The notes beneath the pieces are model-generated. The model saw only the letters and a program-made list of their open reading frames with translations, did not search any database and was not told the DNA's origin. From NCBI GenBank assembly GCA_963977445.1, contig CAXBPH010000089.1, positions 1 through 23,810 on the forward strand: 23,810 bases of DNA. The letters are read 5' to 3'. Below are positions 2,631-23,579 of the stretch, one piece after another. The stretch comes from an uncultured bacterium (GTDB taxonomy: Bacteria > Hydrogenedentota > Hydrogenedentia > Hydrogenedentales > JAEUWI01). Each line of letters begins with the position of its first letter. Position 1 is the first letter of the stretch. The translations under genes were made by a program, and so were the position numbers.

Positions 2631-2718
2631 TGTGACGGTGGTGACGGAGTGAAAGTATAACACCCTATTTTGACGACCAAATAAGGGATTAAGCTTTTCT
2701 AGCGTCACAACCGTCACA
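2631..2718. repeat. 88-bp iteron-like element, copy A; probable replication origin of the primase-helicase
   Basis: TGTGACG (2631) and GGTGACG (2640) face inverted CGTCACA (2703, 2712) across an AT-richer 56-bp core. It lies just downstream of the primase-helicase gene, like PICI/SaPI origins. Inverted relative to copies B and C. Confidence 0.85.
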
Positions 2719-3141
2719 CTACCGTCTATCATGCGCGCCCCTGGGTAACTCCACTACGGTAGCGGCCAGTAGCCTTTTCCGACGCTTCCTGCCCCTTGAT
2801 TCCGTCCGCCCCCTCTACCTCGGCGCCTCTTCCATTCTGGGGCCATTCACAGCGACTCCAGCCTCCTCGTTCTACCTCGCCCTGGGCTTCCAAAAACTTT
2901 TCAATACGAACAGGACAAATGTATGTAAACAGCGCGAGACGCGTCCGCCAATACAACCATGCCTGAATGAAAACAGCCGCGCCCCAGCGAGACGGGGATG
3001 ATCGACGAAAAATCTTGTTTTCCATCCAGGACAAATTCATAGAAACAGAATGAGGCTCTGCGATTGATTCTTGGCTTGATCAACGTAGAGGGGAATTCAG
3101 AGCCAATAAACGCAGCCAGTGCTGCAGAAAGGATCCGTCAT

Positions 3142-3345
3142 ATGGATGAGGAATTCATTACAGAAGCAGAGCTGGCCCAATGGCTAAAGATCAGTAAATC
3201 CACGCTTCACAAGCTTCGTGAAGATGGGCTACTGCCTTTTCAACTCATTGGATCGTGCATCCGGTATTCCCGGAAAGACCTTGATGACTGGCTACGTCAT
3301 CGAAAATTTAACCAACTGGAAGGAGGACCAGAAGATGTTCCCTAA
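3142..3345 (+). CDS. Excisionase-like helix-turn-helix DNA-binding protein (HTH_17/MerR-like)
   Basis: 67 aa MDEEFITEAELAQWLKISKSTLHKLREDGLLPFQLIGSCIRYSRKDLDDWL, the typical Xis/HTH_17 pattern. RBS GAAAGGA at 3127 favours ATG 3142 over the ORF-track start 3064. Confidence 0.88.
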   Translation: MDEEFITEAELAQWLKISKSTLHKLREDGLLPFQLIGSCIRYSRKDLDDWLRHRKFNQLEGGPEDVP

Positions 3346-3880
3346 AACAAGTAATACCCCAAAAGAAACCGGCAACAACGCCGGGTCCATACCAACTGAA
3401 AAAGGAGAAAACGTTATGGAAAGCACACAGTATACAGACGACGAATTACAGATAATCAGGGACCTTGAGAACATGAAGCTCAACCCCAGTAAAAGCAATG
3501 GAGCACCAGACGAAATCCCTGCCGGAAGCTATCTGGCATCCATTACCAATGCATCCAGATCGATCCATGATGAGGGTCAATACGACATCGTCACCATGGA
3601 AATCAAAGTACAAGCCGAACCGTACTCTGGTCGAATATTGAACAAGGTATACCACCAGAAATCAAGGAAAGCGGTTGGCTTTTTCAAGCGAGAGATGAAA
3701 GAGATTGGATACGACGTTTCCAGCCCTAATGAGTTGGAGAGTCTATGCAAATCACTTGTCGGTACCATCATTGTTGCGGACGTTTTTCCCAGCGAGTCAG
3801 GAAACCAGCAAATTTTCTTGAAGAACGCCAACACCAAGAGGACGGTAACTCCGGTTGATCCCGATTCTCTCTGGGGATAA
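3335..3880 (+). CDS. DUF669-like phage protein (probable OB-fold ssDNA-binding protein)
   Basis: Pattern IPAGSYLASI...IKVQAEPYSGRIL...LVGTIIVADV resembles DUF669. Two RBS-supported starts: AGGAGG->ATG 3335 and AAAGGAG->ATG 3416. Confidence 0.7.
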   Translation: MFPKTSNTPKETGNNAGSIPTEKGENVMESTQYTDDELQIIRDLENMKLNPSKSNGAPDEIPAGSYLASITNASRSIHDEGQYDIVTMEIKVQAEPYSGRILNKVYHQKSRKAVGFFKREMKEIGYDVSSPNELESLCKSLVGTIIVADVFPSESGNQQIFLKNANTKRTVTPVDPDSLWG

Positions 3881-3904
3881 TCCGTATTCTTACAACACCC
3901 ACCT

Positions 3905-3931
3905 GACCAGCTTTCATGCTGGTCTTTTTTT
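3905..3931 (+). terminator. Rho-independent terminator of the replication module
   Basis: GACCAGC-tttcat-GCTGGTC followed by T7, about 25 nt after the 3880 stop. Confidence 0.8.
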
Positions 3932-3966
3932 CTCGTTCCATGGCAAGGACAACCAAAGCTAAGGGG

Positions 3967-5142
3967 TCAAGAGGTTTTGGCCTCTGAATCGGACATACGA
4001 CGACCGATGGGCTTTTCCAACACCTTCAGGATCTCCTCTTTCCTGGACTCGTACTCCAGGAGAATCGATTCGTTTTCTTCTTGAAGTCGCCGGTTTTCCC
4101 GTTGAAGGTCTTCATTCTGTTTCGCAAAGTCCTTGGCCATCTCCATCAACTCTGTTTCACTTTCCTGCCCCGATTCGTGGAAGAGTTCATGGAGTCTTCG
4201 ACGTCTGGCAGTACTGACGATGGCCTCTATGGATACTACGTCACTCGGTCCAAATATCTGGGCACGACGACAACAGGCCCGGACGATCTGCATCGTCACT
4301 TCATCCTTGCCTAATCTACGTATGTCGGTAGGCGTGAAAAATCGATGGCGTTTTTGATCCGCTTGCGAATGGATATTTACTCCGGGCTGGTAAACACGGA
4401 TACCACCATTCCAGGTGGTGAAATCTCCCAGCAATTTCTCAAGTTCGCGGTCTACATTGGTGCTCTCCGCCACGTAAACCTTTGCCGCACCACACAGAAA
4501 GCTAGCCATGGGTTCTTGAAGTACGAGTGGTCGCTCGGTGTCCTGCGACCGGGATATGTAGACCAAGGGGCAGGCGCGAGTAGGACTGAGGACGGAATTC
4601 TTGAAAACATCCAGCCGCTCTTCAAACACATCCACGGGTTGGTCACTCAGTATTTCGTCACCACTGGTGCATTTCCAATGGCGTGAGGTAATTAAGCTCT
4701 GAATAATACCCGGCACAAATGGATTGGGTGGTTCGGGCTCTTCTCCCAGATAGCCTGCCATGGAGAAACGGCTTACGACCACAATTCGAAACGATTTGGG
4801 ATCCAGACTGGATAGAGTCAAATCATGGGTCCATCGACGATAGAAGAATTCGCTACAAGGATGAGAAATTCTGCATCCCCAATACGTGGGTGCCAGGCCC
4901 TCCGTGTTGTAATTCCTGGAAAGGGTTTCAAAAAATGTCTTGGGAGGGCATTCGTCTTTGAACGACCCGCCAAGGAGAAAAGTCTTGGTCTTCAACGTAT
5001 CACGGGGAACGTCCAGCGTGTCCTCTACCCACGTGCGAACGCGCTTGCTTATATCCGGGTATGGATCATCCCAATCACTGTTGACGCACGTCGCGTCAAA
5101 AGCACACCGATAGTGGATAGTTCCGCCATAGACATCACTCAT
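3967..5142 (-). CDS. Hypothetical protein with C-terminal coiled coil
   Basis: 391-aa ORF with globular-looking composition and a heptad-rich end (NEDLQRENRRLQEENE). No family securely recognised. Confidence 0.78.
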   Translation of the reverse strand: MSDVYGGTIHYRCAFDATCVNSDWDDPYPDISKRVRTWVEDTLDVPRDTLKTKTFLLGGSFKDECPPKTFFETLSRNYNTEGLAPTYWGCRISHPCSEFFYRRWTHDLTLSSLDPKSFRIVVVSRFSMAGYLGEEPEPPNPFVPGIIQSLITSRHWKCTSGDEILSDQPVDVFEERLDVFKNSVLSPTRACPLVYISRSQDTERPLVLQEPMASFLCGAAKVYVAESTNVDRELEKLLGDFTTWNGGIRVYQPGVNIHSQADQKRHRFFTPTDIRRLGKDEVTMQIVRACCRRAQIFGPSDVVSIEAIVSTARRRRLHELFHESGQESETELMEMAKDFAKQNEDLQRENRRLQEENESILLEYESRKEEILKVLEKPIGRRMSDSEAKTS

Positions 5143-5277
5143 TTAGATTGTATTCTTTCCGTGTAGATCTTGGTGGTTGGAGTGCCCCGCCGCCCTATTA
5201 TACCATAGCCGATCCAGGGTTCCGAGGCCACAAAACCGGGCCATTTTTAGTTTTTTGGGCATCCATGGTCGACTTCA

Positions 5278-6422: not shown

Positions 6423-7157
6423 TCAAAGCCTCAGGCCCTCAAGCTTCTCTTTCCGGCGCTGCCAATCGGGCATGCAAGTAGCTAACAGTCGATAGAAGGA
6501 AGGGGAGTGATCGGCCACCTTGAGGTGGCAAAGCTCATGGACAATAACGTAGTCAATACATTCCACCGGGGCCTGGACTAGCTCGGAATTGAGTAGTATT
6601 CTTCCTGCCTTGCTGCAACTGCCCCAGCGTGATTTCATTCTACGAATGATAACGGGAGGCCGATTTATCTTAAGGCGGGTCAGCTTCGCCAGGCACAGAT
6701 CGAAGCGCCGTTCAAAAAGGGGGCGCGCATGGGTCTTGTACCATGCCTCCACGTGTCGGCAGACCTCAGCCGAGTCTTTCGGATTCGGAAGCTCTACCCT
6801 CAAGTATCGGCCAAGAAGTTTCACGGAAGGCTCCGCCCCTTTGGCAACTTTCAATCGGTACTGCCGCCCCAAGTAGCGGAAGGTCTCGCCACTTAAGTAC
6901 TGCCGGGGGGTAGGTCGTGGCCGAAATCGCTCGAAATGGTCGAGCTGGCGGATAATCCATGGTGCTCGCCGAAGAACACGTTCGCGCACCACCTCGGTGG
7001 AGGTCCCTTCAGGTGCGGCCACCACTACGCGCATGTCCGGCTTTACGGTGATTCCAATGTGTTTCCGGACTCTAAACTCTACCTGGTACGGAATGGCCAC
7101 ACTGCCGAAGGTGATCGAGTCTGATACGGCGGCACGCAATCTATGCTCCGGACCCAT
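6423..7157 (-). CDS. M48/YgjP-like (DUF45, SprT-type) zinc metallopeptidase associated with type I R-M
   Basis: HExxH motif (YVIVHELCHL), MKSRWGSCS, HSPSFY; directly downstream of hsdR. Start uncertain (ATG 7166 or 7157, or TTG 7139 after GGAG). Confidence 0.9.
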   Translation of the reverse strand: MGPEHRLRAAVSDSITFGSVAIPYQVEFRVRKHIGITVKPDMRVVVAAPEGTSTEVVRERVLRRAPWIIRQLDHFERFRPRPTPRQYLSGETFRYLGRQYRLKVAKGAEPSVKLLGRYLRVELPNPKDSAEVCRHVEAWYKTHARPLFERRFDLCLAKLTRLKINRPPVIIRRMKSRWGSCSKAGRILLNSELVQAPVECIDYVIVHELCHLKVADHSPSFYRLLATCMPDWQRRKEKLEGLRL

Positions 7158-10100
7158 GCCGGGCATGGGCCTTCGCCGCGTTGATGCATCGGTCGAGTAT
7201 GGTGTCGATTTCCTCAAAGGCCAATTCGAAGCCGCCTTCCTCGTGCATGCTGAACAAGAGGTCCTCAATATCCGTCTTCATGCGATTCTGAACGTCCATG
7301 TTGTTCGTCCAGTTCACAATCGCTTGCGTATCAACGATGCCATGGATCCCCACGGCGATATCTGCGGCGAGTTCGCGCGTTTCCGCGTTGTCCTCCAAGT
7401 GTCCTTGCAGGATTTCCCGTACCAGTCCATAGAACGCTTTTGCTGCATCTGAGTGTGCCACACGCTCTGGAACGTCGTCCCCGGTTCGCGTCCGCACCCG
7501 TTCCTCAAGGTCCCTCACCTTTGCTAAATACTCGGCGTCCGTAAGTCGTTTTTTTCGCCAGGCGTCAATCACATCTCGCAGCATCTTCGAAAACTTCTCG
7601 TAGAATGCCGGGTCTTCATCCATGCGCTCGGTGATGGTCTTCTGAGTACGCGACGCAATAGTGTCCGCCTTAGCGGCCTCGCCCACGACCTTTTCCACTT
7701 CTTCGGCAAAGCGCTCACGCTCGAAGATGTTCACCAGTCCTGTGACTTGCTCGACCTCCCCGGCACCGACATGTTGGTCAATAAGCTTTTCGATTCGCGC
7801 ATCGTACTCCGACATGTTTACGGTGTCGGAGTAGCGCCGCTCAACCGAAGTACGCAGTTCCCGGAAGTATTTCGCGTCACGGGTATACTTGGGAATGCGG
7901 ACCGCATGCTGCTCCTGAAACTGGACCGTGCCTAGCGCCAGCTTGAGTGTCCGAAGGTAATCCCCGAGCCGGTGGTAAAAACGATGGCGGACGGAAGGGT
8001 CAAAGAGCAGCTGCTCATACGCCTCCCGATCGTACTTGTTGGTGATACCGTCAAATATTTCCCAGAGGTCGGAGTGCTTCTGCGGCAATTGCTTGGCCAC
8101 TTCGCTCAGGTCCGTTAGCGTCCCTTCCAAGTCCTCGTGCTCGAAATCAGGCATCTTGTCATAGAGCGCAAGCGCCCCGTCCAGATTCGCCAAGACGCCC
8201 TGGTAATCGATGATGTAGCCGAAGTCCTTACCCTCGTGCAGCCGGTTCACCCGTGCAATCGCCTGCAACAAGGTATGCTCCTTCAGGTCCCGGTCGAGGT
8301 AGAGTACCGTGTTCCTCGGTGCGTCGAATCCCGTAAGGAGCTTATCTACGACGATGATAATCTCCGGGTCACCCTCGCCCTTAAAGGAACGGATGATCGT
8401 CTTGTTATAGGCGTCCTCCGTACCATATCGTGCCATCATATCCTTCCAGAAGAGCTGGACCCGCCGGTCGCGGCTGTCGCGCAGTTCTTCCTCGCTTTCT
8501 TCCGTGCTTTCATGGCCTTCACGGTCGTCCGGACCCGAAATGAGCGCTTCGGCGGTCACCATGCCGAACTCTTCCAAATACTTCTTGTACATCAGAGCAA
8601 TGTGCTTTCGCCGCGTCACCAGTTGGGCCTTGAATCCCGTCCCCTTCCAGTTGTCGCGGAAGTGGCAGCTCAGGTCCCAGGCAATGGCCATGACCCTTTG
8701 TTCCGCCCGGCTCACATGGTCCGATGTGGCGAATTTCCGCTTCAGGTCCGCCGCCTGCGCCTTGCTCAGCTTGGCCGTTATCTTTCCAAACCAGGAATCA
8801 ATCGCACCCTCGTTCACCTCCAGGGGCACCATCCGCCCTTCATAGAGCAACGGCACCACCGCCTTGTCTTCCACCGCGTCCCGGATGGTATATACCGGTG
8901 GAACGAAGCCGCCAAACCGTGTCACGGTGCTCTTGTCCTTCTTGGCCAGGGGCGTTCCGGTGAAACCGATGTAACACGCGCTCGGAAGCACCTTCTTCAT
9001 CTTCGCGTGGAAACTGCCATACTGGCTCCGGTGACTCTCGTCCACCAGCACGAACATACTCGGGTCATCCACGCGCATCCCCTTCACGTTCCCCAGCGAC
9101 TCAAATTTGTTGATGATCGTCGTCATAATGCGCGCCTTGCCCTCGTCCAGCAGCCGCGCCAGGTGGGCTGCGGTCTGTGCCTGGGCGGGCTCCATGCCGC
9201 AGTGGGTAAAGGTCCGATGAATCTGGTCATCCAAGTCCGTGCGGTCCGTCACCAGCACGATCCGTTGGTCGTAGAGGGCCGGCTCCAGGGCCAGGGCCTT
9301 CGCCAGCATCACCATCGTCAACGACTTGCCGCTACCCTGCGTGTGCCACACCACCCCGCCGTGCCGTCGCCCGGTGCCATCCTGTTCCCGGACCCGCCGG
9401 AGCAAATGGCGCACGGTGAAATACTGCTGCCATCGCGGAACCTTCTTTTCGCCCGCGTCAAACACCACATAGCGCCGCGCGATATCGAGCAGCCGCTCGG
9501 GACGGCACAGGCCATAGATCAGCCGGTCTTGGTCGGTCACTTCCCGGGCGGCTTCGCCGTATTGTTCAAAGGCTTCCCGTGCCGATGGACCACGGGTGGC
9601 AAACATGGGGTCCTTCTGGGCCGAGGTCAAGGGGCTGTTGATGAGCTCCCGGATGGCACCGTCCTCCTGCTCCTTGCCATTCTGCTCTTTCCACGCCGCC
9701 CAGAACTTCGCCGCCGTGCCCGTCGTGGCATACTTCGCCTGGCCCTCTGCGGGCGCCACGCCCAACAGCAACTGGGTATAGGCGAAGAGCATGGGGATCC
9801 CGTCGTCTTTCTGGTTGCGCACATGCTGGGAAATGGCCTGGTCCACGGGCTCGTCCTGCCCGGACAGCACCGGTCGCTTGCACTCGATGACCGCCAGCGG
9901 AATGCCGTTCACGAAGAGCACCAGGTCTGGGGTATAGCACTCCCGGCTCCCGGCCCGCTCCACGGCGTACTCCTCCGCCACGTGGTACACGTTCCGCTCC
10001 GGCCGTTCCCAGTCGATGTAGCGCAGGGTAAAGCTCTTGGTGTCGCCCAACACGGGCTGTTGGAGGCTCTTACCCAACATCAGCAGGTCATAGACCTTTT

Positions 10101-10392
10101 CGTTGGTCCGGAGGAGTCCGTCATACAGCACATCGCGCAAGGCCGCAATACCCGTCGCGATATTCCCGCCGGAAAAGGCATGCTCCTCGCCCCGATAACG
10201 GATGGTGTTAATCGCCGGAAGCACGTCTTCCAGCACGCCGAGCAGTAGTACTTCCGCACGTCGCCCACCACGCAGCCTATCCGCCTCCGCTGGCGTGAGG
10301 TAGGTGTAGCCCAGGCGTTGCAGGAGCTGTAAGGCCGGGAGTTTGCTCGCGCGGTCCTCGTCGAGGGGTGGGGTATAAGCACCGTTCATCAC
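7141..10392 (-). CDS. hsdR: Type I restriction endonuclease subunit R
   Basis: 1083 aa. Nuclease motif PDLVLFVNGIPLAVIECK, Walker A HTQGSGKS, DESHR box, GFTGTP, VDKLLTGFDAP, QAIARVNR. Confidence 0.97.
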   Translation of the reverse strand: MMNGAYTPPLDEDRASKLPALQLLQRLGYTYLTPAEADRLRGGRRAEVLLLGVLEDVLPAINTIRYRGEEHAFSGGNIATGIAALRDVLYDGLLRTNEKVYDLLMLGKSLQQPVLGDTKSFTLRYIDWERPERNVYHVAEEYAVERAGSRECYTPDLVLFVNGIPLAVIECKRPVLSGQDEPVDQAISQHVRNQKDDGIPMLFAYTQLLLGVAPAEGQAKYATTGTAAKFWAAWKEQNGKEQEDGAIRELINSPLTSAQKDPMFATRGPSAREAFEQYGEAAREVTDQDRLIYGLCRPERLLDIARRYVVFDAGEKKVPRWQQYFTVRHLLRRVREQDGTGRRHGGVVWHTQGSGKSLTMVMLAKALALEPALYDQRIVLVTDRTDLDDQIHRTFTHCGMEPAQAQTAAHLARLLDEGKARIMTTIINKFESLGNVKGMRVDDPSMFVLVDESHRSQYGSFHAKMKKVLPSACYIGFTGTPLAKKDKSTVTRFGGFVPPVYTIRDAVEDKAVVPLLYEGRMVPLEVNEGAIDSWFGKITAKLSKAQAADLKRKFATSDHVSRAEQRVMAIAWDLSCHFRDNWKGTGFKAQLVTRRKHIALMYKKYLEEFGMVTAEALISGPDDREGHESTEESEEELRDSRDRRVQLFWKDMMARYGTEDAYNKTIIRSFKGEGDPEIIIVVDKLLTGFDAPRNTVLYLDRDLKEHTLLQAIARVNRLHEGKDFGYIIDYQGVLANLDGALALYDKMPDFEHEDLEGTLTDLSEVAKQLPQKHSDLWEIFDGITNKYDREAYEQLLFDPSVRHRFYHRLGDYLRTLKLALGTVQFQEQHAVRIPKYTRDAKYFRELRTSVERRYSDTVNMSEYDARIEKLIDQHVGAGEVEQVTGLVNIFERERFAEEVEKVVGEAAKADTIASRTQKTITERMDEDPAFYEKFSKMLRDVIDAWRKKRLTDAEYLAKVRDLEERVRTRTGDDVPERVAHSDAAKAFYGLVREILQGHLEDNAETRELAADIAVGIHGIVDTQAIVNWTNNMDVQNRMKTDIEDLLFSMHEEGGFELAFEEIDTILDRCINAAKAHARHGSGA

Positions 10393-10404
10393 GGGGAAAC
10401 GACC

Positions 10405-11262
10405 TTATTCATCGGGCCCCTCCAGCGGTTCTACATGTTTGGGGAGCTTCTTTTCCTCTGATGCGAGACGGCGTTCTACCTTCTTCAAGTCTTCCGCAGG
10501 AGGGAGTCGTTCGGGCACGATATTTCGATTGACCAAAAGCTTACGCACATCTTCATTGTTCTTGACATGCTCGCGGGTGATCGTCGCCTCGGTACGCAGT
10601 TCGTCACGCTGGACATTGAAGCTGGTTATTTCATTGGCGAAATCCTTCGCCTTGATCGTAATCGTGGGCAGGAAATCCGCGAGCGGACGCCCCTTGGGAA
10701 CGCCGAGGCGGTTCTTCATGTCCCCCGTCGACTGTCCCCCGAAGAGGGCCATGTCGCCCTTGCTCCGAATCCGTGCGAAACTCTGCCCGTCGCCGAGCCG
10801 CTCAAAAATTACGCCGGAGAGCACTTTCTCCGATTGCGTCAGCTTTTTGCGGGCACCCAAGCGTTCTATCTCGGCCAAACGCTTCTCAATGACCTCTTGC
10901 TTACGCGTTTGGACCGCGAAATAGGTCTGGGCAAAGGCAATCGCCGCCTTTCCAGGATCGCCGTTCTGGGCGATGAGATAGCAGGCATACCGTGTGAGCA
11001 TGATATCCTCCACCTCCCGTTGCGCCCCTGAACCAATGTTCACCATTTTCGTGGTATCAAGAAAATGGTCCGAAACATCATAACCCGATGTTTCACAGGC
11101 AGTTACGGCCTTGCTTATGACGTTGTAGAAATTCTCCCAAGTCGAGTAGCCCAAAACCCGCTGCAGGTCTCTGGCCAGCCAGAACTCCACGCCCGTTTCG
11201 TCGTGCGTGTGGACCATGGACTCGAATTTGGCGTGCAACTGCGCGACCAATTCATGCTTCAT
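10405..11262 (-). CDS. dinD: DNA-damage-inducible protein D family (Bro-N-like N-terminus)
   Basis: EFWLARDLQRVLGY..WENF, LTRYACYLIAQNGDP.K..IAFAQTYFAVQTRKQE, RPLADFLPTITIKAKDFA, characteristic of DinD. Confidence 0.9.
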   Translation of the reverse strand: MKHELVAQLHAKFESMVHTHDETGVEFWLARDLQRVLGYSTWENFYNVISKAVTACETSGYDVSDHFLDTTKMVNIGSGAQREVEDIMLTRYACYLIAQNGDPGKAAIAFAQTYFAVQTRKQEVIEKRLAEIERLGARKKLTQSEKVLSGVIFERLGDGQSFARIRSKGDMALFGGQSTGDMKNRLGVPKGRPLADFLPTITIKAKDFANEITSFNVQRDELRTEATITREHVKNNEDVRKLLVNRNIVPERLPPAEDLKKVERRLASEEKKLPKHVEPLEGPDE

Positions 11263-11283
11263 ATTCTTGCACTCCTATCAGGA

Positions 11284-11652
11284 TTATACGTGGGCCTGGA
11301 CGGCTTGCCGGAGCATTCCAACGAGGACTTCCTTAAGAACGACGGCGCTAAACCCGCCGACACCGGTAAGGACTGATTTCGCCTTAAACCATCGGGCGTC
11401 ATCTCGGGCAGCGTCTAGAAACTCATGGCCATCCCAGGTCAGCGCGCGCACTTCGCAAAGGGGCAAGACATCACTGTCCCTCCCGACGGTGTACCCGAAT
11501 GCCAAGTCGGCATCCACCAACAAGTAATTGTGATAGCCAATCTTTTCGCGGGAGTAGCCAAGGTCACTCAAGGGTGGAAGCGTACTCTCACCCTCGCCAA
11601 TTTCTTCCAGACGGAATAGAATCTCCCGAATTAAGTCCATGTCACGTTTCAT
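11284..11652 (-). CDS. DUF2513 domain protein
   Basis: MKRDMDLIREIL...YH..LLVDA...LTWDGHEFLDAAR, the DUF2513 signature. Confidence 0.9.
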   Translation of the reverse strand: MKRDMDLIREILFRLEEIGEGESTLPPLSDLGYSREKIGYHNYLLVDADLAFGYTVGRDSDVLPLCEVRALTWDGHEFLDAARDDARWFKAKSVLTGVGGFSAVVLKEVLVGMLRQAVQAHV

Positions 11653-11684
11653 GGATTAGTGCCCTTTCATATGGCAGACACGAC

Positions 11685-13268: not shown

Positions 13269-13270
13269 AT

Positions 13271-14551: not shown

Positions 14552-14556
14552 AGACG

Positions 14557-15162: not shown

Positions 15163-15198
15163 ATTTTGTCCTTGAATGGCACGTATATGGAAACAGCC

Positions 15199-15660
15199 CT
15201 AATTGGAAGATGCGACATCATCTCGACCACGCGGCTTATTTCTTGACTTCACTTTTGGGTGTTCACCTCCACCGCTCCACGTCCCAGTAGCCCTCCAAAT
15301 CTCGTAGTGATACAACCATTCAGCTACCCAGGGGATAATAGTCTCGCCAATTTGCTCGCTGCCGTTCCATTCGCCCGGATAGTATAGGCAGAGCCTGTCT
15401 CCTGGATAGATGTGTGGTAGGTTCTCATGATCACTTGTTCTGAGTTTCGGCTCCAGCACTTGGACATCGGGCGTATCTCCCGGTCGATATCTAATTCTAA
15501 CCTTATAGGTTTGGCTCAGCGGTGTCGGAGTCAGATAGCCCTCCCAAAGTAGTCTTCCCCTGCTCACTTTTGACTCACCATTCGGATTGTGTTTTACGAG
15601 AAACAGATGATGGACGGCTGGGTCCAGACGCTTCGCTCTCCATTTGACCTTACTGCCCAT
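15199..15660 (-). CDS. CBASS-associated stand-alone E2 (ubiquitin-conjugating-like) protein
   Basis: WEGYLTPTPLSQTYKVRIRY...PDVQVLEP...LPHIYPGDRLCLYYPGEW...TIIPWVAEWLYHYEIWRATGTWSGGGEHP. E2-like PH..C motif; start overlaps the CD-NTase 3' end. Confidence 0.88.
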   Translation of the reverse strand: MGSKVKWRAKRLDPAVHHLFLVKHNPNGESKVSRGRLLWEGYLTPTPLSQTYKVRIRYRPGDTPDVQVLEPKLRTSDHENLPHIYPGDRLCLYYPGEWNGSEQIGETIIPWVAEWLYHYEIWRATGTWSGGGEHPKVKSRNKPRGRDDVASSN

Positions 15661-16780
15661 AGAAGCGGTGATCCTTCACTTGTACACCCACTGAGCCAAG
15701 TACCCCGGTCTTAGGATCAACGTGTAGATTTCCAGCTTTACGCTCTTCATAGGCTGCTGCACCCATACTCTTCATGGTCCGATTTACGGCATCAGAGCCA
15801 AAGTGAGGGCGCATTTGTTCTGCCAGTACGTGAAGTCCTCTCGCTTCCACGGCATTCAAAAGGTTGGAGCGCACACTGTCGAGCCAACTCTTGAACTTCG
15901 TTTCCCGCTGTGACTCATGCTCCCACTTGTCGGCAAAGTTTTCCTCGGAATTGACCGGGTTCGGGACCCAACTCACGCCCTCCTTCAACTGAATATAAGC
16001 GGGCATGCCAATCACGATGTTCTGCAGTGCCTCATAGATGTCTTCCTCGTTTCCGTACGCGTGAGCGGCAAGTGTTGTGATAATGATGGATATTGGCTTG
16101 TCATCAGGGTCATCCTCGAACATAATGTCGCGATGTCGTTTCAGAATTTGAATCGCCCGCTGCAGCGGGGTTCGCACCTGCCATTCCGGAACGTCTTCAA
16201 TATGCACCGCTTTGGCTTCCGCCAGGATCGCCTGGCGACGACGAAACACGACCTCCATACGCTTGCGAAACCAAGCACCATAGTCCTTGGGATTACTTAC
16301 GTGCCAATCGTTTTCATCCAGCTTCTTGTCTGGAATCAGGATGGACCCGTCATGTTTGTACTCTTGAGGAATCGCGGGGAGAATGTCCATATGGAACTCG
16401 TTGGCGTAGTCAAGGCGCCAGCATCGGTCTTTCTCTTCCAGCATGTCTTCGTACGTATCGTGGTTTCTAAAGCGATCACCGACCATTCGTTTTAATCCGG
16501 TTTGGCTGACCTCGTCGGGTCGAAAGCCCAATCGACACACGAGGTCGATGTCGAACTCTTCAGCGTCCGACAACGGTCGGGTGACCGTCCCCAACATGAA
16601 CGACCCTTGGGGATATAATTCGGGGTTGTGCAGTCGCAACGGAGACCCTGGTTTCGAGAGCCAGTCCGAGACCGAGGTGTATCGGTCGACCGCTTCCTGT
16701 TGCTTGGTCGGAGAAATGTCCAGTTCTTCCGCCAGCGTGGATAGAAACTTGCCGAGATGTACCTGTTCTTGAGTCAACAT
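15650..16780 (-). CDS. CBASS cyclic oligonucleotide synthase (CD-NTase/SMODS, probably CdnG-like)
   Basis: YPQGSFMLGTVTRP...EFDIDLV, FHMDILPA, SNPKDY..WF, TPLQRAIQILKRHRD, PISIIITTL, NPVNSEENFADKW, C-terminal HRFYGQ. ATG 16780 lies 1 nt after the SAVED gene stop (376 aa). Confidence 0.93.
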   Translation of the reverse strand: MLTQEQVHLGKFLSTLAEELDISPTKQQEAVDRYTSVSDWLSKPGSPLRLHNPELYPQGSFMLGTVTRPLSDAEEFDIDLVCRLGFRPDEVSQTGLKRMVGDRFRNHDTYEDMLEEKDRCWRLDYANEFHMDILPAIPQEYKHDGSILIPDKKLDENDWHVSNPKDYGAWFRKRMEVVFRRRQAILAEAKAVHIEDVPEWQVRTPLQRAIQILKRHRDIMFEDDPDDKPISIIITTLAAHAYGNEEDIYEALQNIVIGMPAYIQLKEGVSWVPNPVNSEENFADKWEHESQRETKFKSWLDSVRSNLLNAVEARGLHVLAEQMRPHFGSDAVNRTMKSMGAAAYEERKAGNLHVDPKTGVLGSVGVQVKDHRFYGQ

Positions 16781-16781
16781 G

Positions 16782-17927
16782 TTAGTGCCCGCCTTTCGTT
16801 TCGGATCCCACAGTAAGCGCATACTGGAAACCGCCGAGTTTCAAATTCTGATCGTAAATATTGAAGGGCATGTCCGCTTTCGGCTGGCGGACTCGTCCAA
16901 GTTCAATTGCTGCAGAGACGCCCATGGCCGGAAACACGTTGAGCTCGGTATCCTGTCCATGCCTTGCCTTGATCTCGTCCAGCAATAGGCGCATGCGCTG
17001 CCGAAACTGACTGAGTCCCTGCCGACTGGGAATGGCGTCATGCTGCGGCTCCGGCACGGTTATAGTCCAGATGGACGCTTTCGATCCCAGCGCCGTTTCT
17101 ATCCGATCCTGCGTAACAGTGGCGGAGAGGCTCAGCACCAAGGCCGGGGAGCCCTTGGTACCGCGAGGCTTCTTCACGACCAGTTCAAAGTCGTCAGGAT
17201 GTTCTCGCCACCGCCAGTCGGCGGGTTCACGAAACAGATGGTAGACCTCCGCACCCCCTATGTCGGTCAAGAGCGAACCCAGGAGGACAAGAAGCGGCTG
17301 CGGGGCCCGCCCGAATACGGATAAGTGCTGTACGTCTCCCAACTCCAATCGCTGCTTGACCCTATCCTTTATGAGGCGTCGTAGGTTCTTACTCTCGATC
17401 TGCCAGAACTCTGGTTCTCTATCCTCGAATGTGGAATTGACCATTCCGAGTTGGAGGGCATCGCTGGAGGCGGGATACCAGTCTGGAAGCATGCCTTGCA
17501 CAGCCTGGTCAAACGAGAGAATCGAACCATGCTCACCAATTCGCGCACCGTACAACAGGACCTCGCTTCGGCGGCTAGGCTGAAGCGAACCGAGGAGTTC
17601 AATACGCTCTTCATGTTCTTGTTTCATGGTCCGCAGGCGCTTCACCGGGTGTTCCGCGACCTGTTCCTTGTCGACAAGGCGATGATGAACGTCACACAGA
17701 ATCATCAGATTCGTGATATTGCTATTGAGTTTGGGGGAGAGCTTTTTATGGCCTCTTGGGCCACCAGGCTTATCAGCGACAATATGCGCGATATACGCTG
17801 CATTGAGTCGGATCTTGGTCAAGAAATCTTCCCAGAGGGGTATATTGCATCCCTGGTACTGACATCGCCCACCGGCCTTGACCCAAAGCAGGAGCTTGAT
17901 TCTGTCTGGTATGGAGCTTACGGACAC
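16782..17927 (-). CDS. cap5: CBASS effector, HNH endonuclease-SAVED (Cap5-type)
   Basis: N-terminal HNH/Zn motifs AGGRCQYQGC, AHIVA..PGGPRG, NLMILCDVHHRLVD. SAVED motifs SVFGRAPQPLLVLLGSLL, YHLFREP..WRW, LSLSATV, NVFPAMGVSAAIELGR. GTG start. Confidence 0.9.
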   Translation of the reverse strand: MSVSSIPDRIKLLLWVKAGGRCQYQGCNIPLWEDFLTKIRLNAAYIAHIVADKPGGPRGHKKLSPKLNSNITNLMILCDVHHRLVDKEQVAEHPVKRLRTMKQEHEERIELLGSLQPSRRSEVLLYGARIGEHGSILSFDQAVQGMLPDWYPASSDALQLGMVNSTFEDREPEFWQIESKNLRRLIKDRVKQRLELGDVQHLSVFGRAPQPLLVLLGSLLTDIGGAEVYHLFREPADWRWREHPDDFELVVKKPRGTKGSPALVLSLSATVTQDRIETALGSKASIWTITVPEPQHDAIPSRQGLSQFRQRMRLLLDEIKARHGQDTELNVFPAMGVSAAIELGRVRQPKADMPFNIYDQNLKLGGFQYALTVGSETKGGH

Positions 17928-18202
17928 TTCGGGCCCCCTTTCTTTTTACTTTCAATCCGCGTAACTTCCCGTCTCCCTGCGGTTTGAACTATTCGGAATT
18001 CCCGAATAGTTGTTTCGGGCACCAGTTCACTCTCCTTGTGGAGGTTCTGCAGGTGTTCGTTGCTGGTGGGTACACTTACCTGGAACAGGTCTCCCAGTTG
18101 CCGTTGACTCAGCCAGACGGACTCGCCCTCCAGGCGCACGGCGATACGTGTACGGCCCTCTTCCGGCTGGTACATCAATATCTGGGACTCGGGTTCAGGC
18201 AC
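17918..18202 (-). pseudogene. rhuM: Truncated RhuM-family (virulence RhuM-like) gene, N-terminal ~84 aa only
   Basis: ILMYQPEEGRTRIAVRLEGESVWLSQRQLGDLF...EHLQNL..E.EL..ETTIREFRIVQTAGRREVTR matches the RhuM N-terminus. It ends before the usual YNLD..ISVGYRV block. Strong RBS GAGGGAGG. Confidence 0.8.
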
Positions 18203-18250
18203 AGCGATTCCTCCCTCTGATCGATATTACACAGAAATTCTGGAAATTAT

Positions 18251-19801
18251 TCACAGAATCCCGAGCTCCTTGAGGTGCTTCGCCATTTCCTTGCGCGTTT
18301 CGCCGAGTTTGGCTTCCAATTCGTCGATTTCTTGCTGCACGGCGGCAATATCGATCTCTTCCTCTTCCTCGAAAGTATCGACATAACGGGGGATATTCAG
18401 GTTGAAGTCGTTCTCTTCGATCTCCGCGAAGGTGGCCCGGTAGGCGTATTTATCCACCGTCTTTCGAGCCCGGTGGGTTTTCACGATCCGCGCGATATCC
18501 TCCTCCCGGAGGACATTCTGATTCTTGCTGTCCTGATACTCGCGGCTGGCATCGATGAAGAGCACGTCCTTCGATTTCCGTCCCTTGTCAAAGAGCAGGA
18601 TGGCCGTGGGGATTCCGGTGCCGAAGAAGAGGTTGGCGGGCAGCCCGATGACGGCATCCAGCAGGTTTTCTTCGATAAGGGCCTTTCGGATTTTGCCCTC
18701 GCTGCCGCCGCGAAACAGAACGCCGTGGGGCACGATGACCCCGACCTTGCCGGTATCGGCCTGGGCGATGTGGATCATGTGAAGGATGAAGGCGTAGTCC
18801 GCCTTGCTCTTCGGGGGCACGCCCCGCCGGTAGCGCTCATAGCGGTCGGCAGCGGCATTTTCCGCGCCCCACTTGTCCAGCGAGAAGGGGGGATTGGCCA
18901 CGACGATATCGAACTTCATGAGCCGGTCATCCTCCACCAGCTTGGGGTCCGTGAGGGTGTTGCAGCGCTCAACCCGTGCGCTATCGGTCTCGTGGAGGAA
19001 CATGTTCATCTTGCAGAGAGCCCACGTGGCGGCATTGGCCTCTTGACCGAAGAGCGCGTAGTTCTGCTGTCCGTTTTGCTTGGGAACCTGGCGACCGACC
19101 TTCAACATGAGAGAGCCGGAACCGCAGGCCGGGTCGCATATACGGGCACCAGCCTCGGGGCCGAGCAGCCGTGCGAGGAGCGCGGAGACCTGGGAGGGGG
19201 TGTAGAATTCTCCCGCCTTCTTGCCCGCGTTGGCCGCGAAATTGCCGATGAGGTATTCGTAGACATCGCCGATGATATCCCGGTCGTGCAGCTTCGAAGG
19301 GCGGAGGTCTAGCTTGGGGTGGTTGAAGTCGTCCAACACATGCTTCAGGCGGCGGTTACGCTCTTTCGCGTCACCGAGGTTGGCCTCGCTGTTGAAATCG
19401 ATATCGCGGAAGACGTTCTCCAGTTTGGCCTTGTTGGCATCTTCGATGGCAGCCAGGACGATGTTAATGAGCTCGCCTATATTGTCCGCGTTACGCCGTT
19501 CGTAGATATTGTCGAAGGTGGCCGGGAACGAGTCCACCACGGTGCCTTCCTCGTCCTTGAGCTCTACCGTGGGGACTACAAAACGCTCCCGCTCGAGTGC
19601 GCGGCGCACTCGTTCCGCGTTGCCCTTGTACTTGGCTTCATATTCCGCCTTGCGGTCTTCCCACACATCGCTCAGGTATTTCAGAAAGAGCATGGTGAGG
19701 ATGTAGTTCTTGTAATCGCTGGGGTCGATAGCGCCGCGAAAAGTGTCGCACGCCCGCCACACGATGTTCTGGATGTCTTTCACTACCTGCATGTCGGTCA
19801 T
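18251..19801 (-). CDS. hsdM: Type I R-M methyltransferase subunit M (N6-adenine)
   Basis: WRACDTFRG, GEFYTP, DPACGSG, VANPPF, VPHGVLFRG, NLNIPRYVDTF. True start is probably ATG 19801 (TAATG overlap with the upstream gene), giving 516 aa. Confidence 0.97.
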   Translation of the reverse strand: MTDMQVVKDIQNIVWRACDTFRGAIDPSDYKNYILTMLFLKYLSDVWEDRKAEYEAKYKGNAERVRRALERERFVVPTVELKDEEGTVVDSFPATFDNIYERRNADNIGELINIVLAAIEDANKAKLENVFRDIDFNSEANLGDAKERNRRLKHVLDDFNHPKLDLRPSKLHDRDIIGDVYEYLIGNFAANAGKKAGEFYTPSQVSALLARLLGPEAGARICDPACGSGSLMLKVGRQVPKQNGQQNYALFGQEANAATWALCKMNMFLHETDSARVERCNTLTDPKLVEDDRLMKFDIVVANPPFSLDKWGAENAAADRYERYRRGVPPKSKADYAFILHMIHIAQADTGKVGVIVPHGVLFRGGSEGKIRKALIEENLLDAVIGLPANLFFGTGIPTAILLFDKGRKSKDVLFIDASREYQDSKNQNVLREEDIARIVKTHRARKTVDKYAYRATFAEIEENDFNLNIPRYVDTFEEEEEIDIAAVQQEIDELEAKLGETRKEMAKHLKELGIL

Positions 19802-20406
19802 TACGCGTGATTCCTTGTCGAGATGGGGTGACCTTCGGCCACGTGCATACTGACACCGCTGAGCCATTGGGCTCGCTTTGTCAGGAGTTCCTGGGTTAAC
19901 GTCTGCTCCTGCCACTGGAGCCGGTCCAGGGAGACAATTTGCTGTTGCGCTTCCAAGGTGGGGACGGGTACCTGTAACGACTCGAATACGGGGCGGGTTA
20001 CCACCGTGATATTCCCGGCACCCTGGGCACCCTTCAATAAGTGGCTCTGGGCGGCGGGTTGGCGGATATACCACGTGAGGTACGCCGACAACACGCGACT
20101 GGTATCGATTTGCAGGATGTAGAAATGATTCGAGGCGAGGGTGTTCTCCGGCAATCCGGAAACGAGGCCCGCCTCATGGGTCACGCCACGAACCTGCAGG
20201 AGCACATCACCCTCTGAGACGGTATACTGATCCGTCGAACGATCCGGCGTGAATCCAGTCAGCGTTCCGGGGTCGATAGTGCCATCATCCCGCAGATTCC
20301 GCATCTGGATGAGCCTGTGGGTGCCGCAGGGGTCTTCTTTCACCGCCCCCCGTGCCTGATATCCCACCTGGATACTCTGGGCTATGTCTTGTAGTTTAAG
20401 CTTCAT
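19801..20406 (-). CDS. Short HsdS-like protein (single target-recognition domain)
   Basis: About 201 aa from ATG 20406 (RBS GAGG). GDVLL, YL.WY, LQVPVPTLEAQQQIV pattern of a TRD plus a conserved helix. Confidence 0.82.
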   Translation of the reverse strand: MKLKLQDIAQSIQVGYQARGAVKEDPCGTHRLIQMRNLRDDGTIDPGTLTGFTPDRSTDQYTVSEGDVLLQVRGVTHEAGLVSGLPENTLASNHFYILQIDTSRVLSAYLTWYIRQPAAQSHLLKGAQGAGNITVVTRPVFESLQVPVPTLEAQQQIVSLDRLQWQEQTLTQELLTKRAQWLSGVSMHVAEGHPISTRNHA

Positions 20407-20482
20407 GTAATCCTCATTACCGAGACGGAATAATACAATTATCTGAAGTTTGCGTGTTACCATGTCCGTGTAGAATGTCTTA

Positions 20483-20511
20483 AGTCTACCTTGATCCTTA
20501 GGACATGTCAA
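20483..20511 (-). promoter_or_regulatory. Sigma70-type promoter of the R-M/CBASS operon
   Basis: Minus strand TTGACA (20511-20506), 17 nt, TAGACT (20488-20483), 76 nt upstream of ATG 20406. Confidence 0.75.
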
Positions 20512-21206: not shown

Positions 21207-21332
21207 ATCTGTACCATAACTATAGTAGTACGTAAAATTAAAAAATACCGTCAGCAACGAAAGGAGGTACAGCCAGGCTGGCACCAAGTTAATCGATATT
21301 ACACATGAATTCTTAGAAAAGGAATGAGACAT

Positions 21333-22097
21333 ATGCAATCGCACTCATACAACAATCAAACTGTAAGCACGAGAACCTTTCAGGCTCGTGGAAAAAACTA
21401 TTTCAACATGTCCGATGGGCTTCAGGGTGTAGACCTTGAATTCGCGAAGACCAGATTGATCATCGGACGCTCTTTGAGCAGACTTACGTCTGCGTTACAA
21501 CGACATGGCTTGGACAACCAAGCTATGGGGACAGAAATCAAAAATCGGCTTCGAATTGAGCCGGGGGTCGCAGCCCAATGTGTGCGAGTATCCCGTGCCT
21601 ACCGACCCGACGAAAATGAAGCAGACGGATTCGAGTTCTACTACCTGATAGCGATACCGCATGAAGTACTACTCGAATTTCTTCAACACGTACTCCAGTA
21701 CTTCAAAGACCCTACCCAGGGGGTCGGCCCTAATATGTGGGTGTCCAAGAAGTCGATTGAGATCTACGTCGCATTGGAAACAGGCCCGCCTCAGTGGTGG
21801 GACCTGAAATTTTTGACTACGGAACAGGTCAAGGCACTTCCAGCGCTGGTATCTCAGACCGGACCTCCGCCACAGCAGCAGGCGTCCAATAACTATGGGC
21901 AATCGGGGTCGTCATACCAAGCGAGCCATGCACCCAATTTGGGACAGGAGAGGGATGATGGTATCGCCCCTCTTTCTGCTAGGGAGGAGCTCTCCATGGA
22001 CGACATCTTTGAACAAGATTACCGGGAAAGTTTACGTTCGACCCCTCAGAACCCCGACACTCAACCTGTTGGCAACCGCCCCGAATATAAGCTGTAA
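21333..22097 (+). CDS. Hypothetical protein with low-complexity Q/S/P-rich C-terminal tail
   Basis: About 254-aa ORF. RBS AAAGGA 9 nt before ATG 21333; followed by a clear terminator. Confidence 0.75.
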   Translation: MQSHSYNNQTVSTRTFQARGKNYFNMSDGLQGVDLEFAKTRLIIGRSLSRLTSALQRHGLDNQAMGTEIKNRLRIEPGVAAQCVRVSRAYRPDENEADGFEFYYLIAIPHEVLLEFLQHVLQYFKDPTQGVGPNMWVSKKSIEIYVALETGPPQWWDLKFLTTEQVKALPALVSQTGPPPQQQASNNYGQSGSSYQASHAPNLGQERDDGIAPLSAREELSMDDIFEQDYRESLRSTPQNPDTQPVGNRPEYKL

Positions 22098-22120
22098 CTT
22101 AAAACTGGCCTCATCGACTG

Positions 22121-22152: not shown

Positions 22153-22194
22153 CATGGCCCCGATTGGCGTGCTGAACAAGGCACAACCCAATGG

Positions 22195-22282
22195 TGTGAC
22201 GGTTGTGACACTCTGAAGGCTTAACCTCCTATTTACCAGGACGAATAAGGGTTCTTACTTTTACTCCGTCACCACAGTCACA
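22195..22282. repeat. 88-bp iteron-like element, copy B
   Basis: TGTGACG-gt-TGTGACA ... CGTCACC-ac-AGTCACA. Aligns without gaps to copy C (68/88) and to the reverse complement of copy A. Confidence 0.85.
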
Positions 22283-22399
22283 GTCCTTGGACTCGGTAAT
22301 TTCTCTGTCCCTCGGTCCTCATACGTGCCGAATGACGGAGGAAAGTAATGATACCTTGTCCGCTTCTCCCCCGTACCTTGGAATGACACCCACGCAATG

Positions 22400-22435
22400 A
22401 AAAACCGGAAGATTCGATACACGAATCTTCCGGTT
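22400..22435 (-). terminator. Rho-independent terminator for the 23194->22460 gene
   Basis: 14-bp perfect stem AACCGGAAGATTCG/CGAATCTTCCGGTT with a 5-nt loop, ending in a T run on the minus strand. Confidence 0.75.
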
Positions 22436-22459
22436 AGCGAGAGGTGAGTACGCCTTCGA

Positions 22460-23194
22460 CTAATTGTAATTTCGAAGAGCGGCTCCTCGGAGGCGTTTGA
22501 GCTCAGTTTCTGGTGCTTCATGCTCGGAAACGTCTTCAAAATAATGTACCTTCAGCTTCGTTTTGGGCAATGGAGCGAATCCGTTTGCTTCAGCTTCTTT
22601 CTCAGTAGAAAGTGCGCCTTCATCTCTGCGATTCCACAAGATGTCAACGAGGGGAACTATGCCATATTCTTTCAGCAAGCGGTCCTCGTCTTCCGGCAAG
22701 TATTCAATCGGAGCTTCGAGGAAGTTGAATGTTTTCGCGGTACACGATGTGACGTACCGGAGATCCATGGCGAATCTACCGATACCGTATGCGATGAACC
22801 ACACCTTGATAGATGTTGGAGAGCAATCGCAGCCGGGAAAACCCGACATCGGGCTGTGGACATAATATTGATGTGTGCGCCAGCTGAATGCCATGAAAAC
22901 AGGGAAGTGAATCTTCCTTACGTACTCCAAGGCGAATTTATCTTCTTCCGGCGGACCTTCTTCGGGCCAGTAGTCGATTAGTTGCGTGAGATTTTCCACG
23001 TTTTTTTGCCACGCACAGGGTTGTAGACAAAGATGATCGCTCTCATATGTACCATGTGCATAGCCTACCCCACTTCGAAAGTGTTCGAAATAGGATTGCG
23101 CGAGATTCAGGCCGTGCTCGGCGTCCCGCATGTAGAAATTGTTGCGTTTTTGATTCTCCAGAACAATCTGGACATTCGTAGTTGAACCGTGCAA
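22460..23194 (-). CDS. Hypothetical protein
   Basis: 244-aa ORF with TTG start preceded by AGGAAAGGA, and a downstream terminator. No family recognised. Confidence 0.7.
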   Translation of the reverse strand: MHGSTTNVQIVLENQKRNNFYMRDAEHGLNLAQSYFEHFRSGVGYAHGTYESDHLCLQPCAWQKNVENLTQLIDYWPEEGPPEEDKFALEYVRKIHFPVFMAFSWRTHQYYVHSPMSGFPGCDCSPTSIKVWFIAYGIGRFAMDLRYVTSCTAKTFNFLEAPIEYLPEDEDRLLKEYGIVPLVDILWNRRDEGALSTEKEAEANGFAPLPKTKLKVHYFEDVSEHEAPETELKRLRGAALRNYN

Positions 23195-23373
23195 ATTAAC
23201 TTTCCTTTCCTGCCCTCACTGGGGCAGTTACTATGTGCCGCCCTATGCGTCACTATTGGAACTGTACCACCACTTGTAAGAAAGCGCAACGACATCTAGC
23301 AAACTAGTACAAAAACAAAATATTCAACCCATCAGCATTGCGATAGCGTATTGGCGGGCAGAGAGAATCAAAA

Positions 23374-23425
23374 AAAACCGGGGCAATCCCCAGATTTTCC
23401 ACAAGTAACCAACCGTTGTTACCGG
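23374..23425 (+). repeat. ~52-bp imperfect direct repeat 1, containing DnaA-box-like TTTTCCACA
   Basis: AAAACC...TCCACAAGT....AACCGTT...ACCGG recurs 294 bp downstream. Confidence 0.6.
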
Positions 23426-23491
23426 CTCTTGCCGCCGATTCCGAGGCAATCTGCCACCAACGGGCGTACTGGACGAAACAAAACCCACTGG

Positions 23492-23579
23492 TGTGACGGT
23501 TGTGACGCTCTGAAAGCTTAACCCTCTATTTGTGCTCAGCAATAGGGGTATATACTTTTGCTCCGTCACCAGCGTCACG
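23492..23579. repeat. 88-bp iteron-like element, copy C
   Basis: TGTGACG-gt-TGTGACG ... CGTCACC-ag-CGTCACG. 68/88 identical to copy B and to reverse-complemented copy A (manual count). Confidence 0.85.

Follow-up and report, generated by a model that had tools for sequence, protein, structure and literature searches.

Phased GTGAC pentamers beside a P4-family primase-helicase gene form a candidate origin module in a defence island of an uncultured Hydrogenedentota bacterium

What is the role of a family of 88-base-pair (bp) sites, bounded by inverted TGTGACG-type repeats, that lie on both sides of a block of defence genes in an uncultured Hydrogenedentota bacterium? We examined this question in contig C89 (CAXBPH010000089.1 of assembly GCA_963977445.1), which at its full length of 23,810 bp constitutes the window analysed here and which belongs to a 7.1-Mb draft genome of 464 contigs; GC makes up 53% of the contig and 56% of the whole genome. 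An earlier note, made from the letters of the window alone, had described three such sites and offered two explanations, a multipartite origin for the Prim-Pol/superfamily 3 (SF3) helicase encoded on the contig, or a recombination or cassette-boundary site. By analogy with characterised origins, the unit is probably an origin module read by this helicase, with the cluster beside the helicase gene serving as the origin. It is very likely that the two copies in that cluster, the half-deleted site D and the full site A, constitute the origin of the island.

The three sites of the earlier note were recovered at its coordinates. Site A, the second primase-proximal copy, occupies 2631..2718 on the minus strand, and the full distal units B (22195..22282) and C (23492..23579) lie on the plus strand, inverted relative to A and in direct orientation with each other, 1297 bp apart. 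The three align without a gap and are identical at 68 of 88 positions for A-C and for B-C and at 65 of 88 for A-B, with the TGTGACG-type repeats in inverted orientation at both unit ends. The layout reads TGTGACGGTTGTGAC, 25 nucleotides (nt), a 9-nt centre, 24 nt and GTCACCNNNGTCACR. A 58-bp interior is thus flanked on the left by a pair of GTGAC pentamers and on the right by a pair of GTCAC pentamers, the members of each pair 9 bp apart, and the two arms measure 15 bp each. At 38-43% GC (38% in site A), this interior is AT-richer than the contig with its 53%. The family proved larger than the three copies first described. Searching the 7.1-Mb genome with an nhmmer profile returned five full copies (E 1.9e-25 to 9.5e-23) and one half-site (D, E 2.6e-07) and nothing else, all on two of the 464 contigs, in two related islands and at matching positions. 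The additional full copies, E and F, are 1300 bp apart in a paralogous island on contig C10. Half-site D (2527..2574, minus strand) retains the centre ACCAAGACG and one arm with two GTGAC pentamers, the other arm being lost; it starts one base past the primase stop codon, with A 104 nt further on, and is identical to B at 40 of 48 and to E at 42 of 48 positions. Its counterpart is a full site both in a third island, from genome G007, and in the metagenome loci L564 and L568. The homology of D ends exactly at the boundary of the 9-bp centre, G-rich sequence at 2575-2630 stands in place of the missing arm, and the spacing from D to A is 46 bp shorter than in G007. The exact length of 88 bp holds for A, B and C and becomes 86-88 bp over the 17 distinct copies of this site family.

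The 9-nt centre had been described as hypervariable. Among A, B and C this is so: the arms are pairwise identical at 64-67 of 79 positions and the centres (GGTCGTCAA in A, ACCAGGACG in B, GTGCTCAGC in C) match at 1-2 of 9. Across the wider family the description fails, as B, D, E, F and the distal copy of G007 all carry ACCAGGACG-like centres (7-8 of 9), A has the same centre as its G007 counterpart, and copies at matching positions often have a centre in common. The centre of C matches the same-position copies in C10 and in the metagenome loci L562 and L565 at 1 of 9, though the flanks are about 91% identical. Since the inner arm beside this centre is also atypical, the wholesale replacement in C suggests, from sequence comparison, that paralogous units have undergone patchy conversion. 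Variation at the centre is thus not free, but the centre is replaceable wholesale. In genome G005 the primase-proximal unit (locus L039, 19590-19677) has the centre ACTCCGACC, whose reverse complement, GGTCG..., resembles the start of the A centre GGTCGTCAA and may represent a flipped loop; this 5-nt match is the sole support for loop inversion, and the arms of the units in genome G010 are too symmetric to be oriented.

The position of the units relative to helicase genes carries most of the argument. The earlier note had proposed a profile scan of related genomes that would record whether matches follow primase genes. They do: in all four site-carrying genomes of the genus (represented by C89, G007, G005 and G010) a unit abuts the 3' end of the primase-helicase gene, starting between -29 and +1 nt of the stop codon. 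D is at +1 in the window, G007 has sites at +1 and +151, and the G005 site overlaps the last 29 nt of the gene. The complete genome G010 has an intact gene followed by three units and, next to it, a 229-residue truncated helicase C-terminus followed by three more. The cluster is a tandem duplication (G010:C1:7580001-7600000, locus L035, 12090-16776) in which some right arms mirror the left-arm type and form more perfect palindromes. The metagenome relatives L564 and L568 have the primase gene and then two tandem full units. In another family of the order, two genomes (G089 and G104, contig C24) encode helicases 32-37% identical to that of the window with a unit at the stop codon; the interiors of these units are unrelated, and the four pentamers and a length of 86-88 bp are kept. 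The exact four-pentamer pattern was found in 6 of 133 genomes of the order, and a reversed control pattern in none of the 133; together with the profile search, this shows that the family is no product of chance. As a separate observation, several loci (L084, L118, G005, G010 and G104:C24) have a unit that extends into the final 20-85 nt of the coding sequence.

The adjoining gene of the window (250..2526, plus strand) encodes 758 residues with Prim-Pol, D5_N and DUF5906 (SF3) domains by Pfam and a P4-family primase C-terminal region. Its N-terminus matches Prim-Pol family PF09250 at E 1.5e-20, and the protein scores 254.7 bits against NCBIfam TIGR01613 ('phage/plasmid primase, P4 family'), for which the curated cut-off is 108.7. 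The last 150 residues were folded with 32 homologues from site-adjacent genes, giving a mean predicted local distance difference test score (pLDDT) of 81.5, and the last 73 or so residues (nt ~2305-2523) were modelled as a winged helix. When model residues 78-150 were compared with 48,161 chains, DNA-binding domains of RFX proteins took the top two places (Z 10.7 and 9.7) and the P4 origin-binding domain, 1ka8_A, ranked third (Z 8.1, root-mean-square deviation 2.3 A, 71 aligned residues, 20% identity), a Z near 8 being a value that can reflect merely a common fold. Foldseek returned the same winged-helix families, more weakly. The helicase tail thus models as a P4-type origin-binding winged helix.

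How far does this arrangement extend beyond the order? We scanned species-representative genomes and viral contigs with the pattern GTGAC-N4-GTGAC-N55-60-GTCAC-N4-GTCAC, which matched at least 120 stretches in the former and 89 in the latter, and analysed 80 loci from each set. In 26 of the 80 genome loci the site abuts the stop codon of a replicative helicase: 17 of the D5_N/DUF5906 type (with or without Prim-Pol), 4 with DUF927, 2 with DUF3987, 1 VapE and 2 AAA_25. One of these loci, L092, and G089:C6 are one and the same contig. The first GTGAC incorporates the helicase stop codon, TGA, in 11 of the 26 (L073, L085, L091, L092, L095, L099, L104, L107, L113, L118 and L119), and many of the 26 have three pentamers on each side (3+3). 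Among the viral loci, 34 of 80 have a helicase within 3 kb; the site starts between -47 and +100 nt of the stop codon in 26 of these and lies within 450 nt downstream in 31 and elsewhere in 3. In the viral loci outside these 34, clean 3+3 phased pentamers are present all the same. Helicases outside the D5 type with phased GTGAC/GTCAC at the stop codon were seen with DUF927 (L059, L079, L087, L097), DUF3987 (L056, L106), VapE (L113 and eight viral loci) and AAA_25 (L107, L115, L187, L218). Three viral contigs (L164/L178, L172/L181 and L203/L216) each bear a pair of 3+3 GTGAC units that are nearly identical and separated by 15-28 kb. On two of these contigs a large serine recombinase gene has one of the units about 77-120 nt 3' of it, and none of the six units has a recognised helicase adjoining it. 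Phage phi105 has two GTTAC motifs 9 bp apart, an 84-nt AT-rich spacer and two GTAAC motifs, starting 45 nt past its primase gene.

An iteron origin after a primase-helicase gene is already known as a kind of element, and we compared the unit with three examples. According to one study, the origins of Staphylococcus aureus pathogenicity islands (SaPIs) lie downstream of rep and consist of opposed iterons around an AT-rich region, bound by a C-terminal winged helix, with the winged helices of neighbouring Rep subunits on successive iterons (bioRxiv 10.64898/2026.10.17.759575). The 7-nt TGCAACC iterons of SaPI5 are separated by AA (bioRxiv 10.64898/2026.10.17.759575), which by our arithmetic gives a 9-bp period, that of the window pentamers. 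SaPIs and related phage-inducible chromosomal islands (SaPIbov1, SaPI5 and EcCICFT073) further resemble the window in having the origin directly downstream of the pri-rep gene (bioRxiv 10.64898/2026.10.17.759575; PMC6092414), short penta- to heptanucleotide iterons in two opposed sets flanking an AT-rich region, and an SF3 helicase initiator with a C-terminal winged helix, the reading of iterons by that helix being a prediction for the window. In the same accounts a SaPI origin spans about 300 bp, with 5-6 iterons per side and an AT-rich core of about 102 bp, whereas the window unit has 88 bp and two pentamers per side; the iteron is TGCAACC rather than GTGAC; and a single origin is described for SaPIs, in contrast to the full extra units 20 kb away in the window. 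Genes for packaging or helper interference were not seen in the window, where Pfam, PHROG and NCBIfam matched none of the open reading frames (ORFs) to a capsid, terminase or interference family; the contig is part of an island, and many ORFs belong to no family. The host is an uncultured Hydrogenedentota bacterium.

In phage P4, the crr locus is needed in cis. The P4 record (NC_001609) places crr directly after the alpha gene and its terminator, with ori annotated 4.5 kb away, so that the comparison with P4 made in the earlier note was apt; crr consists of two 120-bp repeats, each with type-1 repeats GGTGAACA / TGTGAACA 9 bp apart in both orientations. P4 alpha and the window helicase belong to the same family (TIGR01613), and the modelled tail shares the fold of the P4 origin-binding domain. 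The iteron cores are similar (GTGAAC in P4, GTGAC in the window), and just as crr follows the alpha terminator, the distal units of the window follow terminator-like hairpins. Both systems have two separated iteron clusters (ori and crr in P4, D/A and B/C in the window), whereas the five closest homologues have one cluster each. The primase domain of P4 is of the Toprim type, as given in a pRN1 study (PMC4234260), and that of the window is Prim-Pol; ori and crr differ in layout, whereas the distal sites of the window are full copies of the proximal unit; and the clusters are 4.5 kb apart in P4 and 20 kb apart in the window.

The third example is archaeal plasmid pRN1. Its Prim-Pol/SF3/winged-helix protein needs a stem-loop of about 100 bp 3' of its own gene, predicted at 75 C to form a 21-nt stem and a 58-nt loop; genetic work defined this origin as a stem-loop that has to be intact, and an analogous stem-loop follows the replication gene of Bordetella phage BIP-1 (PMC4234260). 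The same paper offers further likenesses to the window, which is bacterial: a palindromic element of about 100 bp 3' of a Prim-Pol/SF3/winged-helix gene with a terminator before it, a loop of 58 nt against 58 nt between the 15-bp arms of the window unit, and GTG/CAC motifs noted in the stem (PMC4234260). As described there, the pRN plasmids conserve the stem-loop's structure and its sequence poorly, with no iterons recognised (PMC4234260), in contrast to the sequence-conserved, phased pentamers of the window unit, where the structural signal beyond the pentamers is weak. By these analogies the unit is most likely a compact member of the class of origins formed by SaPI and related islands, P4 crr and pRN1.

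Because a unit abuts the helicase 3' end wherever the gene is seen, we favour the origin reading, and what is described for the Rep proteins of SaPIs and for P4 alpha suggests a mechanism. Winged helices at the C-termini of adjacent hexamer subunits would dock on the two phased pentamers of one arm, and a second hexamer would assemble on the mirror arm. The AT-richer 58-bp spacer between the hexamers would then be melted and primed by the Prim-Pol domain, and the 9-bp centre would be the midpoint of the dyad, outside the reading of either hexamer. A centre read by neither hexamer would be weakly constrained and could be overwritten, which would explain conserved arms around a free centre. Extrusion of a cruciform during origin melting is compatible with this mechanism.

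The distal copies B and C are the unusual part of the system. Upstream of B lies ORF257 (21324..22097, plus strand), a conserved backbone gene of unknown function that is 85% identical to its counterpart in G007 and 39% to that in C10; it is followed by a terminator-like hairpin at 22120-22147 and then by the site. Between B and C lies ORF244 (22460..23194, minus strand), an unknown gene with no Pfam, PHROG or NCBIfam match. A strong minus-strand terminator-like hairpin precedes each distal unit: the one at 22435-22403 follows ORF244, with B 121 bp beyond it, and the one at 23694-23666, together with a second at 23393-23378, encloses C. A 56-nt direct repeat (71% identical) also occurs on both sides of C, at 23370-23425 and 23664-23719, each copy comprising a minus-strand terminator-like hairpin and a second short inverted repeat. 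L562 and L565, both metagenome loci, have the two-site arrangement as well. Of the words sampled from 22100-23700, at most 0.12 were present in any one sequencing run. Of the multipartite origin proposed in the earlier note, the origin-type character of the sites stands (a position 3' of the gene, the iteron layout and a predicted P4-type winged helix), and a replication role for B and C is drawn from analogy. The likeliest reading of B and C, which we put forward tentatively, is that the same protein binds them and that they work alongside the proximal cluster as an auxiliary or second origin, much as P4 relies on both ori and crr.

The chief alternative for these copies, which we consider rather unlikely, is that B and C, like E and F on C10, are inert relics of an ancestral tandem or mosaic element and that the proximal cluster alone works. 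Several findings tell against a role for the distal copies. In each of the five genomes that encode the closest homologues of the helicase there is one site, beside the gene, and G010 has no copy outside its 2.3-kb cluster in the 60 kb examined. Contig C10 carries distal copies and no Prim-Pol/D5 gene within the contig. In the distal copies the pentamers differ at 1-2 of 20 positions versus 8-11 of 68 elsewhere in the unit, which with so few sites is no measurable excess conservation. Modules can also duplicate along with a dead helicase fragment, as in G010, and decay, as in D; E, F and the G007 distal copy each have one mismatch in an outer pentamer; B forms a poor hairpin (z -1.26 against shuffled sequences); and comparison of C89, C10 and G007 shows the islands to be mosaic. 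Against the relic reading, the arms of B and C still agree with A at 81-85% of positions around scrambled centres, no distal copy has a damaged inner pentamer, and the cluster holds the same backbone position in five island variants (C89, C10, G007, L562 and L565; 81-91% identical). No helicase remnant was found beside the distal copies.

Other observations weigh against reading the unit as a helicase-bound origin in general. One match within the order, G104:C15, adjoins an AcrB pump gene rather than a helicase gene. About 48 of the 80 genome loci have no helicase in view and have housekeeping neighbours, many of them from a few Proteobacteria assemblies, and for this reason the bare pentamer pattern is not diagnostic. 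Control patterns in the viral contigs returned 21 stretches for a GCGAC version and 51 for an everted order (some of these from tandem sites) versus 89 for the true pattern; as the controls are not empty, it is the positional association and not the number of matches that carries the argument. The inner gap of the viral units spans 24-91 bp and peaks at 50, 58-59 and 67. A universal 88-bp geometry is thereby ruled out, and the spacer of 58 bp is particular to the lineage. Finally, the last 120 residues of the five helicase families showed no mutual similarity by phmmer or hhalign, so that these tails are either winged helices diverged beyond recognition or the GTGAC motif has another reader. 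Because at least five helicase families with dissimilar tails have GTGAC at their stop codons, one might picture phased mirror-image GTGAC sets as a pan-bacterial origin signal independent of helicase family, for example a priming signal with GTG on one strand and GTC on the other, an idea that we judge improbable.

The second explanation in the earlier note can be sharpened to site-specific recombination, in which the 9-bp centre would be the crossover region and the units would direct the excision or insertion of cassettes such as that of ORF244, or inversion of the cargo. The inverted placement of A and B around the cargo was confirmed, also in G007, where 23 kb separates the sites. However, the breakpoints of the cargo lie 1.3-3.5 kb inside the A-B interval, away from both sites (homology between the islands covers 3108-6290 and resumes at 20848), and what remains of a cassette boundary is the ORF244 segment, which alone is bounded by B and C. 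This 1.3-kb segment, lying between direct copies, is present in four islands and absent from G007, where one hybrid-looking site is left. On either side of this indel stands a direct repeat made up of the site and about 28 bp more, and because the repeat runs 28-40 bp beyond the unit, ordinary homologous recombination is enough to account for it. Among the 133 genomes, ORF244 had two copies in its own genome and one weak match in one other, homologues too rare to show whether gene and site move together. Recombination would fit the clean break of D, left with its centre and one arm, the discrete types of centre, with the inverted D and B of the same type, and the position of one of the dispersed sites just 3' of a large serine recombinase gene in two viral contigs. 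No recombinase gene, however, adjoins any site in the island family, the integrase of C10 being beside tRNA-Arg, and the constant association across phyla is with helicase 3' ends. We regard site-specific recombination as very improbable.

Might the units instead act as folded single strands, either as a hairpin in the 3' untranslated region of the primase mRNA or as a single-stranded DNA priming signal or promoter? They are long imperfect palindromes whose free centre resembles a hairpin loop, A, C and F fold far above shuffles (z -7.0, -4.9 and -3.7), the right backbone contains DUF932 and other genes typical of transferred DNA, and the pRN1 origin discussed above is itself a stem-loop. Yet for B and E the folding hardly exceeds that of shuffles; the inner arms, though alike from copy to copy, pair poorly with each other (11-15 of 25); no Rfam 15 covariance model matched the window at E <= 1; and B and C lie beyond terminator-like hairpins. 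The outer pairs are invariant in 13 of 13 copies, with a covariation term of -0.38 and compensatory change in 2 of 20 pairs, and across phyla the stems are kept as sequence (GTGAC) and not as pairing. Conservation as sequence without covariation fits protein read-out of duplex DNA and speaks against RNA, so that a single-stranded function appears highly unlikely. We give as little credence to the proposal that the units are operators or centromere-like sites of another DNA-binding protein of the island, such as a repressor or partition protein. Dissimilar helicase tails beside GTGAC sites would suit it, as would the dispersal of several copies, typical of partition and silencing systems, and the several small ORFs of unknown function conserved in the island backbone; those ORFs, ORF244 and ORF257 showed no similarity to helicases and no Pfam, PHROG or NCBIfam match. 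No candidate protein, however, is common to the cross-phylum examples, in which the constant neighbour is a helicase 3' end and not a promoter; the modelled helicase tail has the fold of the P4 origin-binding domain; and Pfam showed no ParA/ParB-type gene in the window. Miniature inverted-repeat transposable elements or transposon ends were rejected, as all copies are at matching positions of two related islands and the 10-nt flanks of A, B and C showed no direct repeat of the kind left by target-site duplication.

The origin module proposed here sits in an island whose relatives share a backbone and differ in cargo. The sister islands on C89 and C10, from the same genome, align over C89 3108-6290 (C10 3636-5416) and C89 20848-23804 (C10 19690-22723), with 87% identity across the last 1.7 kb. 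The island in G007 combines a primase of the C89 type (82% identical), two full proximal sites and one distal site with a bacteriophage exclusion (BREX) system of the C10 type (96-99% identical). In the window the variable defence cargo (6423..20511, minus strand; Pfam) lies between the proximal and distal sites and consists of type I restriction-modification genes interleaved with DUF6119, Bro-N and a SMODS and SAVED pair resembling a cyclic-oligonucleotide-based anti-phage signalling system (CBASS). The slot is delimited by the backbone genes DUF4230 on the left and ORF257 on the right, and in C10 (5799-19439) and G007 it is filled by BREX instead. Such a slot has the look of a defence hotspot, here within an integrative island carrying the gene for a P4-family primase.

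The end of the C10 island is a tyrosine integrase gene adjoining tRNA-Arg, the only integrase seen; for this tRNA-Arg end no repeat was found inside contig C10, and a single 50-nt match occurred on contig C441. In place of the C89 primase gene, C10 has on its minus strand (286-3060) a 924-residue ORF without a Pfam match, which has a weak PHROG 'DNA primase' match over residues 55-186 and no GTGAC unit after it; fragments homologous to it lie on the flanks of the G010 primase cluster. Runs of the 9-bp repeats TGGGACCTG / TGGGACTTG occur at or near several contig ends of the host genome (C305, C407, C420, C334 and C15); they came up because they almost satisfied the search for double heptamers, and they have no relation to the 88-bp sites.

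What is new here is a minimal 88-bp module of two pentamers on each side, full extra copies of it that bracket a swappable defence cargo, and a GTGAC signature that recurs across phyla at the stop codons of helicase genes; open-access full texts yielded no account of such a pentamer arrangement, subscription journals lying outside that coverage. For the organism, the finding supplies a concrete, testable candidate origin for an integrative defence island of an uncultured phylum. The compact 2+2-pentamer module with its 9-bp period is small enough for binding, cryo-electron microscopy and minireplicon studies of SF3 self-loading, and the four-pentamer signature could help to annotate the origins of satellites, prophages and islands and to study the co-evolution of winged helices and iterons. 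The distal copies lend themselves to the question of whether two-site replication control of the P4 kind occurs outside P4. The improbable reading of GTGAC as a pan-bacterial signal has a further part: the module would have spread to a second locus in this island lineage, leaving inverted copies that bracket the defence cargo, and the helicase could then initiate replication, or recombination linked to it, on either side of the cargo and so favour the cargo swaps seen between sister islands.

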